Sequence record: EF517100.1
Direction: 5' to 3' (one strand)
Length of the DNA stretch: 565 nucleotides
Source: a phage
This document shows, piece after piece, positions 1-565 of the stretch (position 1 is the stretch's first letter; each line of letters opens with the position of its first letter). Made by a program: the position numbers and the translations under genes. The notes beneath the pieces are model-generated. The model saw nothing but the letters and a program-made list of their open reading frames with translations. It was not told the origin of the DNA and ran no database searches.

Positions 1-441
1 GTTCCGGCTGCTGACCGTGTGTTCTACTGTGACCCAGATAGCTACTCTGCGATTCTGGCAGCACTGATGCCGAACGCAGCAAACTACGCTGCTCTGATTG
101 ACCCTGAGAAGGGTTCTATCCGCAACGTTATGGGCTTTGAGGTTGTAGAAGTTCCGCACCTCACCGCTGGTGGTGCTGGTACCGCTCGTGAGGGCACTAC
201 TGGTCAGAAGCACGTCTTCCCTGCCAATAAAGGTGAGGGTAATGTCAAGGTTGCTAAGGACAACGTTATCGGCCTGTTCATGCACCGCTCTGCGGTAGGT
301 ACTGTTAAACTGCGTGACTTGGCTTTGGAGCGCGCTCGCCGTGCTAATTTCCAAGCGGACCAGATTATCGCTAAGTACGCAATGGGCCACGGTGGTCTTC
401 GCCCAGAAGCTGCTGGTGCAGTGGTTTTCAAAGTGAAGTAA
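1..441 (+). CDS. 10A: Major capsid protein, T7 gene 10A type; C-terminal 146 codons plus TAA stop at 439-441; 5' partial, continues upstream of the window
   Basis: Seen in sequence: frame +1 is open from position 1 and translates to VPAADRVFYCDPDSYSAILAALMPNAANYAALIDPEKGSIRNVMGFEVVEVPHLTAGGAGTAREGTTGQKHVFPANKGEGNVKVAKDNVIGLFMHRSAVGTVKLRDLALERARRANFQADQIIAKYAMGHGGLRPEAAGAVVFKVK*. Codon usage is strongly biased as in a highly expressed gene (Arg only CGT/CGC, Leu mostly CTG, Gly mostly GGT/GGC). Established knowledge, recalled not searched: this matches the C-terminus of phage T7 gp10A almost residue for residue, the only difference I recall being the last residue (K here, E in T7). The ORF-track start at 19 is a GTG inside the gene, not the true start. 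Confidence 0.95.
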   Translation, partial: VPAADRVFYCDPDSYSAILAALMPNAANYAALIDPEKGSIRNVMGFEVVEVPHLTAGGAGTAREGTTGQKHVFPANKGEGNVKVAKDNVIGLFMHRSAVGTVKLRDLALERARRANFQADQIIAKYAMGHGGLRPEAAGAVVFKVK

Positions 442-565
442 TGCTGGGGGTGGCCTCAACGGTCGCTGCTAGTTCCGAAGAGGCGAGTGTTACTTCAACA
501 GAAGAAATCTTAACGCCAGCACAGAAAGCCACACGCACCCGTGCTGTTAACAAAGCTCGAAAGGA
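1..565 (+). CDS. 10B: Minor capsid protein, T7 gene 10B type, made by -1 frameshift: shares the 10A frame up to the slippery site (about 1-428), then continues in the -1 frame from 429 past the window end; partial at both ends
   Basis: Seen in sequence: the -1 frame (codons at 429, 432, ...) has no stop from 375 to 565 and reads, after the shift, QSEVMLGVASTVAASSEEASVTSTEEILTPAQKATRTRAVNKARK(E...). Established knowledge, recalled: the T7 10B extension begins ...VVFQSGVMLGVASTVAAS... and ends ...ANKARKEAELAAATAEQ, the tail also encoded upstream of the T7 terminator in pET vectors. The window sequence is clearly homologous with a few substitutions. The exact shift codon cannot be determined from sequence alone. 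Confidence 0.8.
423..429 (+). promoter_or_regulatory. Programmed -1 ribosomal frameshift slippery site GGTTTTC (G GUU UUC in the 10A frame)
   Basis: Seen in sequence: the heptamer lies 12 nt upstream of the 10A stop, in codon phase G|GUU|UUC, with an open -1 frame downstream. Established knowledge: the T7 gene 10 frameshift that yields 10B (roughly 10% of capsid protein) was mapped to this G GUU UUC motif near the end of 10A. Confidence 0.7.

Follow-up and report, generated by a model that had tools for sequence, protein, structure and literature searches.

Identity of the Locus

The window, i.e., the whole 565-nt stretch of EF517100.1 that was analyzed, carries on its plus strand the 3′ part of gene 10A (1–441; residues 200–345 followed by the stop codon TAA at 439–441), as indicated by frame-1 translation, alignment to T7, and a match to PDB structures. 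A slippery heptamer (423–429) precedes the 10A stop, and the −1 frame holds 10B-specific coding sequence from position 429 to the window edge. Using megablast against 50,697 phage records, we obtained 225 hits, among which Escherichia phage T7 provided the top matches, 97.9–98.1% identical along the entire window. Against the reference T7 genome (V01146), the window could be aligned gap-free at T7 23564–24128, with 553 of 565 positions identical. The frame-1 protein matched residues 200–344 of T7 10A in PDB entries 2xvr/3j7w (E = 3.8e-93), and by this sequence evidence the 0-frame ORF is that of a T7-like (HK97-fold) major capsid protein 10A. In the annotation of V01146, gene 10A spans 22967–24004, gene 10B is a joined CDS ending at 24162, Tphi is located at 24210, and gene 11 begins at 24228.

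The window differs from T7 by 12 substitutions, every one of which is a change from G:C to A:T. The consequences at the protein level include E345K at the final residue of 10A and six amino-acid changes within the 45 visible residues of the tail. No database record matched the window or its 12 substitutions exactly, variant-specific strings were absent from viral, metagenome, and genome contig collections, and an exact-protein lookup found no identical protein for the 146-aa 10A fragment. With high confidence, we assign positions 375–565 to a phage T7 gene 10, where they comprise the recoding region together with the 10B-specific tail. The feature is already known, namely as the T7 gene 10A/10B frameshift tail. 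The present analysis established the identity with T7 gene 10, the reading frames, the heptamer and its register, the homology of the tail, and the layout of stop and terminator in the relatives.

Reading Frames and the Slippery Heptamer

A frame scan of the window confirmed what the initial annotation had described for the −1 frame, i.e., a stop codon at 372–374 and an open frame from there to position 565. This TAA on the plus strand is the last −1-frame stop upstream of the shift site; it bounds the open stretch and has no function of its own. Between 375 and 565, the −1 frame, whose codons start at positions divisible by 3, contains zero stops in 63 codons plus two bases. Within this stretch, only 429–565 is read in the −1 frame, while 375–428 is open and translated as 10A. 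Past the shift site, stops occur at 439 and 511 in the 0 frame and at 434, 470, and 548 in the +1 frame. The openness of the −1 frame is by itself weak evidence for coding, because approximately 5% (375–563) to 10% (429–563) of shuffled sequences were stop-free as well.

The slippery heptamer G GTT TTC (423–429, plus strand) is of the X XXY YYZ type, with G_GU in the place of X_XX, and stands in the register of 10A. The codons read GTG GTT TTC AAA GTG AAG TAA, so that the 10A stop follows three codons downstream, as in T7. Gapless alignment showed the heptamer to be the same as that of T7, for which G_GU U_UUC is given as the gene 10 shift site in a review (Atkins et al. 2016, PMC5009743).

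For comparison, we used 80 IMG/VR loci matching the C-terminus of 10A as relatives; the T7 clade comprises 22 distinct sequences that are 80–98% identical to the window. GGTTTTC was found in 67 of the 80 relatives. Five loci (L033, L034, L036, L038, and L040) carry CCCAAAG instead, and L028 carries TTTAAAG. We take the CCCAAAG loci to be T3-type, assuming that this is the shift site of T3. The −1 frame extends 113–299 nt beyond the 10A stop in 77/80 relatives, the exceptions being L050, L052, and L059, an anomalous locus. In all 80, by contrast, the +1 frame is closed within 4–52 nt of the 10A stop. The real support for coding in the −1 frame is therefore comparative, as this frame is open in nearly all relatives while the +1 frame closes.

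The 10B Tail

The 10B-specific part of the window (429–565, plus strand) consists of 45 codons in the −1 frame (QSEVML...NKARK) and two further bases that begin a Glu codon. Positions 429–563 translate to QSEVMLGVASTVAASSEEASVTSTEEILTPAQKATRTRAVNKARK, in which Ser, Thr, Ala, and Glu together account for 56% of the residues and Lys or Arg for six of the final 13. This agrees with the composition that had been proposed from the sequence, i.e., a Ser/Thr/Ala/Glu-rich tail with a basic end. Homologues of the tail were 78–90% identical, and their invariant motifs STVAAS and LTPAQKA are both present in the window tail. A T7-like tail (P0004) showed 88% identity, and the closest tail protein among 5.8 billion proteins was only 90% identical. 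At the protein level, the homologues finish 9–13 residues past KARK. In the 22 T7-clade sequences, 10 of the 15 third positions of −1-frame codons in 486–530 were variable, compared to nine of the 30 other positions. Judged by this homology, the −1 frame crosses the 10A stop, and the tail it specifies is a homologue of that of T7 10B. The window contains 45 of the 56 tail codons; the remainder in T7 comprises 11 codons (EAELAAATAEQ), followed by TAA. T7 10A has a length of 344 aa and 10B of 397 aa, which corresponds to an extension of 53 aa, and 10B is dispensable (PMC5592923, PMC11482910).

The Expected Downstream Stop and Tphi

In T7, the 10B stop codon TAA is located at window-equivalent positions 597–599, i.e., 32–34 nt past the window edge, and thus within the few tens of nucleotides beyond position 565 in which the initial annotation had expected it. 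The TAA is followed by the spacer CTAGCAT and by a 15-pair hairpin, AACCCCTTGGGGCCTCTAAACGGGTCTTGAGGGGTT, at window-equivalent positions 607–642, with a T-run that reaches position 648. The arms of this hairpin include CCCC at 609–612 and, on the 3′ side, GGGG at 635–638. Gene 11 starts approximately 20 nt beyond this T-run. The hairpin and its U-run form Tphi, the late terminator for T7 RNA polymerase, which expression vectors carry as the "T7 terminator". All 22 T7-clade sequences keep the heptamer region, the tail, the TAA, and a near-invariant Tphi, so that the positions foreseen for the 10B stop and for a strong terminator right after it apply to the whole clade. Among the wider relatives, 74/80 possess a strong hairpin (−17 to −28 kcal/mol) and a T-run, 37–79 nt past the −1-frame stop. 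All 74 hairpins open with CCCC(T)TGGG and close with GAGGGG-T5-10, and their interior is variable. A −1 frame that continues for hundreds of codons with no terminator, which would have spoken against this layout, was seen in no close relative.

As none of the collections contained the 3′ continuation of the window, we infer its own stop and terminator from the relatives. The downstream sequence would match that of T7, with the stop at 597–599 and Tphi at 607–648. The hairpin expected here by analogy, AACCCCTTGGGG...GAGGGGTTTTTT, is predicted to lie within approximately 10 nt of the −1-frame TAA. Tphi is thus predicted to follow directly after the 10B stop (8 nt), as in T7 and the 22 clade members, and to lie wholly outside the window.

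Proposed Route to 10B

Ribosomes translating 10A would arrive at G GUU UUC (423–429), where the tRNA-Val in the P-site and the tRNA-Phe in the A-site would slip back by one base to GGU UUU in approximately 10% of passages, which is the literature value for T7. Reading in the −1 frame would resume at CAA (429–431; ...AVVF-QSEVMLGVAS...), the 10A stop at 439–441 would be missed, and the junction peptide of the resulting 10A–10B fusion would be AVVFQSEVMLGVASTVAASSEEASVTSTEEILTPAQK. The addition of a 56-residue tail, which is Ser/Thr/Ala/Glu-rich at first and Lys/Arg/Ala-rich at its end, would yield the minor capsid protein 10B. By analogy with T7, the remaining 11 codons and the TAA would occupy window-equivalent positions 564–599, and Tphi (hairpin 607–642 and U-run) would follow. 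As for the stimulation of the shift, our best guess is that a stem-loop at 434–497 acts as a proximal impediment, which is modulated or stabilized by the distal terminator region. Production of the fusion by this variant at approximately 10% is presumed from the T7 literature. The occurrence and efficiency of frameshifting, the dispensability of 10B, and the need for the terminator (CCCC) were all taken from the literature.

Two published observations concern the 3′ sequence. When the heptamer GGTTTTC was placed before EYFP without its native 3′ context in a phage display study, frameshifting amounted to <1%, compared to approximately 10% natively (PMC1635266). Furthermore, the 2016 review ascribes to a CCCC within the terminator a part in T7 frameshifting and considers its mode of action unexplained (PMC5009743). 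In T7, the distance from the heptamer to CCCC is 186 nt. According to the initial annotation, efficient frameshifting needs distal 3′ sequence including the terminator region, and the stimulatory element may lie outside the window. The first statement matches the reported role of CCCC (PMC5009743), and the result with EYFP (PMC1635266) is consistent with it. The second holds insofar as CCCC belongs to the terminator (PMC5009743), but is probably incomplete, because a candidate stem-loop and a constrained block are found inside the window.

A Predicted Stem-Loop and a Near-Invariant Block Downstream of the Heptamer

Folding of the RNA predicted a stem-loop at 434–497 (plus strand) that encloses the 10A stop and represents a candidate local frameshift stimulator. 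It is composed of an outer stem (434–442:489–497), a middle stem (443–447:469–473), and an apical hairpin (449–455:461–467). Its first base lies 5 nt 3′ of the heptamer, within the canonical spacing for −1 frameshifting (5–9 nt). The minimum free energy (MFE) was −25.8 kcal/mol (z = −2.4), and 5 of 200 shuffled sequences folded equally well. The sole inverted repeat in the window, 434–441/490–497, is complementary at 8/8 positions.

The stem is kept in 22/22 T7-clade sequences, with 98–99% of cells paired. This conservation is weak evidence, because all changes are one-sided and proceed through G-U only; RNAalifold revealed no double-sided covariation in the T7-clade stem (22 sequences). An alternative inner hairpin (453–457:480–484) scored about equal to the RNAalifold hairpin. 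We also compared the MFE folds of cluster representatives. In five of seven clades (clusters 0, 1, 2, 4, and 5), the fold consisted of one extended stem-loop 5–7 nt past GGUUUUC, formed by different sequences and with z-values of about −1.4 to −4.3; the representatives of clusters 3 and 6 did not show an extended stem-loop near the heptamer. A sister clade with 29 members has a similarly placed hairpin with two compensatory pairs (AU/GC at 16:10 and CG/UA at 17:8), and the supported helix begins 19 nt past the heptamer. Rfam yielded no match at E ≤ 1, either for the window or for the 3.5-kb T7 locus.

Inside the stem-loop lies a near-invariant block of about 34 nt (450–485, plus strand; GTGGCCTCAACGGTCGCTGCTAGTyCCGAAGAGG...). 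In the 22 T7-clade sequences, only two of 11 third positions of −1-frame codons vary between 453 and 485. By comparison, 102 of 140 third positions are variable in 10A (Fisher p = 5e-4), and 34 of 41 in the remaining tail (p = 1e-4). The suppression of synonymous variation therefore suggests that the nucleotide sequence as such is under constraint, and part of the stimulator may be located inside the window; this synonymous conservation could also serve another function.

In the MFE fold of the window, the heptamer itself is paired with GAAAGCC (524–530). We rejected this pairing as a stimulator, since it would already be unwound by a ribosome positioned at the heptamer. In addition, the pairing partner consists of conserved Q-K-A codons.

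Local and Long-Range Stimulation

The elements within the window raise the possibility that the stimulator is mainly local, i.e., the stem-loop at 434–497, and that the terminator is needed only indirectly. We regard this as a tentative explanation that is more doubtful than not. The canonical 5-nt spacing and the z-value of the predicted stem-loop argue for it, as do the similar folds that five of seven clade representatives form from different sequences 5–7 nt past the heptamer, the compensatory pairs of the sister clade, and the low synonymous variation in 450–485. Moreover, CCCC forms the base of the Tphi hairpin, so that a mutation of CCCC would also destroy the terminator. An intact Tphi could define or protect the 3′ end of the mRNA approximately 50 nt past the 10B stop, and its loss would lower the amount of 10B that is recovered while slippage stays unchanged. 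An indirect role of this kind is an equally simple reading as long-range pairing. However, the changes in the T7-clade stem are one-sided only, and in the review the distal effect counts as a true long-range stimulation that is still unexplained (PMC5009743). As the literature calls the distal sequence required, the local stem-loop cannot suffice alone.

Another possibility is a direct long-range RNA pairing between the window and the terminator, with a pseudoknot-like junction. A precedent is the −1 frameshift of barley yellow dwarf virus (BYDV), which needs a far-downstream sequence that pairs with a structure beside the slippery site. T7 resembles BYDV in its distal requirement and in a candidate duplex; in contrast to BYDV, the distance is approximately 190 nt rather than kilobases, the system is bacterial, and the pairing is a candidate only. 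Long-range frameshift stimulators are also described for umbravirus-like RNAs (PMC10602861). An unbiased duplex search of the 100 nt after the heptamer against the 5′ flank of Tphi identified, in T7, GGGGGU (446–451) and UGCUAGU (465–471), which flank the apical hairpin, as candidate partners of ACUAGCA..ACCCC (window-equivalent 599–605 and 608–612).

We consider a BYDV-like pairing of this kind improbable, although several observations are in its favor. The T7 duplex reaches −17.0 kcal/mol, compared to −10.6 ± 2.4 kcal/mol for shuffled sequences, of which 1.7% were as good, and both strands of its 7-bp part are nearly invariant in the T7 clade. The density of G runs of at least four is 6.3 per kb directly past the heptamer, compared to 0.58 per kb in the remaining tail and 0.01 per kb upstream. 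The pairing would also explain the reported role of CCCC (PMC5009743). On the other hand, only 17 of 60 unique sequences carry the G-run, its offset takes four different values, and in other clades it pairs locally; relatives such as Yersinia phage R and EG1 have none near the heptamer. The duplex is significant in T7-like sequences only and not in other clades, it shows no covarying pairs, and its outer pair is mismatched in two sequences. Both the local stem and the Tphi hairpin, which is very stable, would compete with the duplex, and the MFE fold of the full T7 region does not contain it. Finally, a complement of 6–7 nt within approximately 250 nt is not rare by chance. The combined arrangement, in which the block at 450–485 forms the apex of the stem-loop while its flanks pair with ACUAGCA..ACCCC at the foot of Tphi and thereby explain the distal need for CCCC, appears unlikely as well.

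Our best guess remains a proximal stem-loop that would act together with the distal terminator region. As of the 2016 review (PMC5009743), the way in which a sequence approximately 190 nt downstream boosts frameshifting at G GUU UUC had found no explanation. Targets for mutation are offered by the conserved local stem-loop, the constrained block of about 34 nt, and the candidate pairing with the terminator flank.

Other Readings of the Open Frame

An ATG in the −1 frame (441–443, plus strand) overlaps the 10A stop as TAATG. The tail could thus be encoded by an independent small gene, with termination at UAA (439–441) and reinitiation at AUG (441–443). The product, a free peptide of approximately 52 aa, would replace the frameshift fusion or be made besides it. 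The window and 20/22 T7-clade sequences share the UAAUG overlap. Many GenBank records of relatives annotate a separate "head protein/minor capsid protein" ORF of 49–54 aa starting from this ATG, and proteins of 49–54 aa are stored accordingly in a large protein collection. This separate ORF is probably an annotation artefact, as gene callers cannot model a frameshift, and in this way the 10B tail is probably mis-annotated in many deposited T7-like genomes as a small gene of its own. The heptamer is far more widely conserved than the AUG; GGTTTTC and the open frame are kept in L010 and in clusters 2 and 5, none of which has the AUG. L028, whose heptamer is TTTAAAG, likewise lacks the AUG and keeps the open frame. 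For T7, 10B is documented as a 397-aa fusion with 10A that arises by frameshifting (PMC5009743, PMC1635266, PMC5592923). An independent gene is therefore very improbable, and the frameshift fusion remains the reading of choice.

That the open −1 frame has no coding role can be dismissed almost with certainty: 45–63 codons do stay open in 5–10% of shuffles, but chance is excluded by a frame that stays open in 80 relatives with three exceptions, with the +1 frame always closed, and by a tail that has protein homologues, including the annotated T7 10B, and in which substitutions are enriched at third positions.

Transcriptional slippage on the TTTT run was rejected as a source of 10B. Four bases are generally considered too few for this, and published work explains 10B by ribosomal slippage.

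Comparison with Known Frameshift Systems

The programmed −1 frameshift of T7 gene 10A/10B was reportedly described by Dunn and Studier in 1983 and by Condron, Atkins and Gesteland in 1991. The window shares with it the gene, the heptamer G GUU UUC, the register, and the stop three codons on, and differs by the 12 substitutions. Our analysis thus re-identifies a programmed frameshift that was among the earliest to be described in bacteria, as well as the T7 terminator in widest use. The predictions for the downstream region restate the T7 map and, as a finding, carry little weight.

Among the relatives, the loci presumed to be T3-type by their shift site carry C CCA AAG and have an extension of approximately 85–92 codons. 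T3 gene 10 also uses a −1 frameshift near the end of the capsid gene, which leads to a C-terminally extended minor capsid protein, and has a similar CCCC...GGGG terminator (PMC5009743). The T3-type extension is Ig-like, whereas that of T7 is not (PMC5009743). In bacteria, tandem slippage is also known from E. coli dnaX, where a 3′ stem-loop follows the site at a short distance (PMC1635266). Unlike T7, dnaX uses A AAA AAG and an upstream Shine-Dalgarno-like stimulator, needs no distal element, and shifts at approximately 50%.

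Sequence features and predicted RNA structure downstream of the slippery heptamer

Among the 22 aligned sequences of the T7 clade, we identified a block of 34–36 nt (window 450–485) that hardly varies, compared to approximately 10% divergence outside of it. Synonymous variation within the block is low, with 2 of 11 third positions varying versus about 73% elsewhere, and its variable positions are nonsynonymous. This suppression of synonymous variation implies some role of the block at the RNA or DNA level.

Structured RNA was also considered in more distant relatives of T7 gene 10. 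The sister clade (29 relatives among L039–L091, aligned as A3) harbors a long hairpin 20–62 nt 3′ of the slippery heptamer GGTTTTC (alignment columns 27–69), in which two base pairs have switched in a compensatory manner (AU/GC and CG/UA). The −1 extension in this clade is about 90 codons long. These compensatory switches suggest that structured RNA just 3′ of the 10A stop recurs outside the T7 clade as well.

Across the relatives L012–L091, runs of at least four G residues occur at 6.3 per kb within 45 nt 3′ of the heptamer (window 430–474), compared to 0.58 per kb in the remaining tail region and 0.01 per kb, i.e., nearly none, in gene 10A and upstream. The post-heptamer runs are found at four offsets, which differ by lineage.

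The heptamer itself (GGUUUUC, 423–429) is paired with GAAAGCC (524–530) in the minimum-free-energy fold of window 423–565. GAAAGCC provides the codons for Q-K-A. At 525 and 527, where the window has A in place of the G of T7, two G–U pairs of this helix have become A–U pairs. The pairing probably arises incidentally from the conservation of the QKA codons.

Substitutions separating the window from T7

The alignment to T7 revealed no differences within window 1–308 and 12 thereafter (positions 309, 325, 348, 436, 474, 508, 525, 527, 531, 542, 547, and 557). All 12 are G-to-A or C-to-T changes relative to the T7 plus strand, without a single transversion or A:T-to-G:C change among them; in natural relatives, by comparison, only about 40% of the differences from T7 are G:C-to-A:T and 25–45% are transversions. 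None of the window's variants is carried by any database copy. The window looks like T7 that was mutagenized, either by an alkylating agent or a deaminase, or altered in some other way. Differences are denser in the 10B-only part (8/124) than in 10A (4/441; p = 0.001). The 10A changes comprise three synonymous ones and one at the last residue (E345K), and six residues are altered in the tail; constraint on the dispensable 10B looks relaxed in such an altered T7.

Apparent loss and annotation of the 10B extension

A usable extension is missing in a few relatives. L052 lacks the heptamer, and its −1 frame closes 11 nt past the 10A stop; L050 has a premature TAG within the tail; L059, likewise without the heptamer, has a terminator-like hairpin directly 3′ of the 10A stop. 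These appear to be natural 10B losses, which is consistent with 10B being dispensable.

In GenBank, many T7-like genomes give the 10B tail a small ORF of its own, named "head protein/capsid and scaffold protein", where a joined frameshift CDS would be expected. This ORF begins at the ATG overlapping the 10A stop (TAATG, window 439–443), as seen in L002, L003, L005, and L007–L009, and appears to be a systematic mis-annotation.
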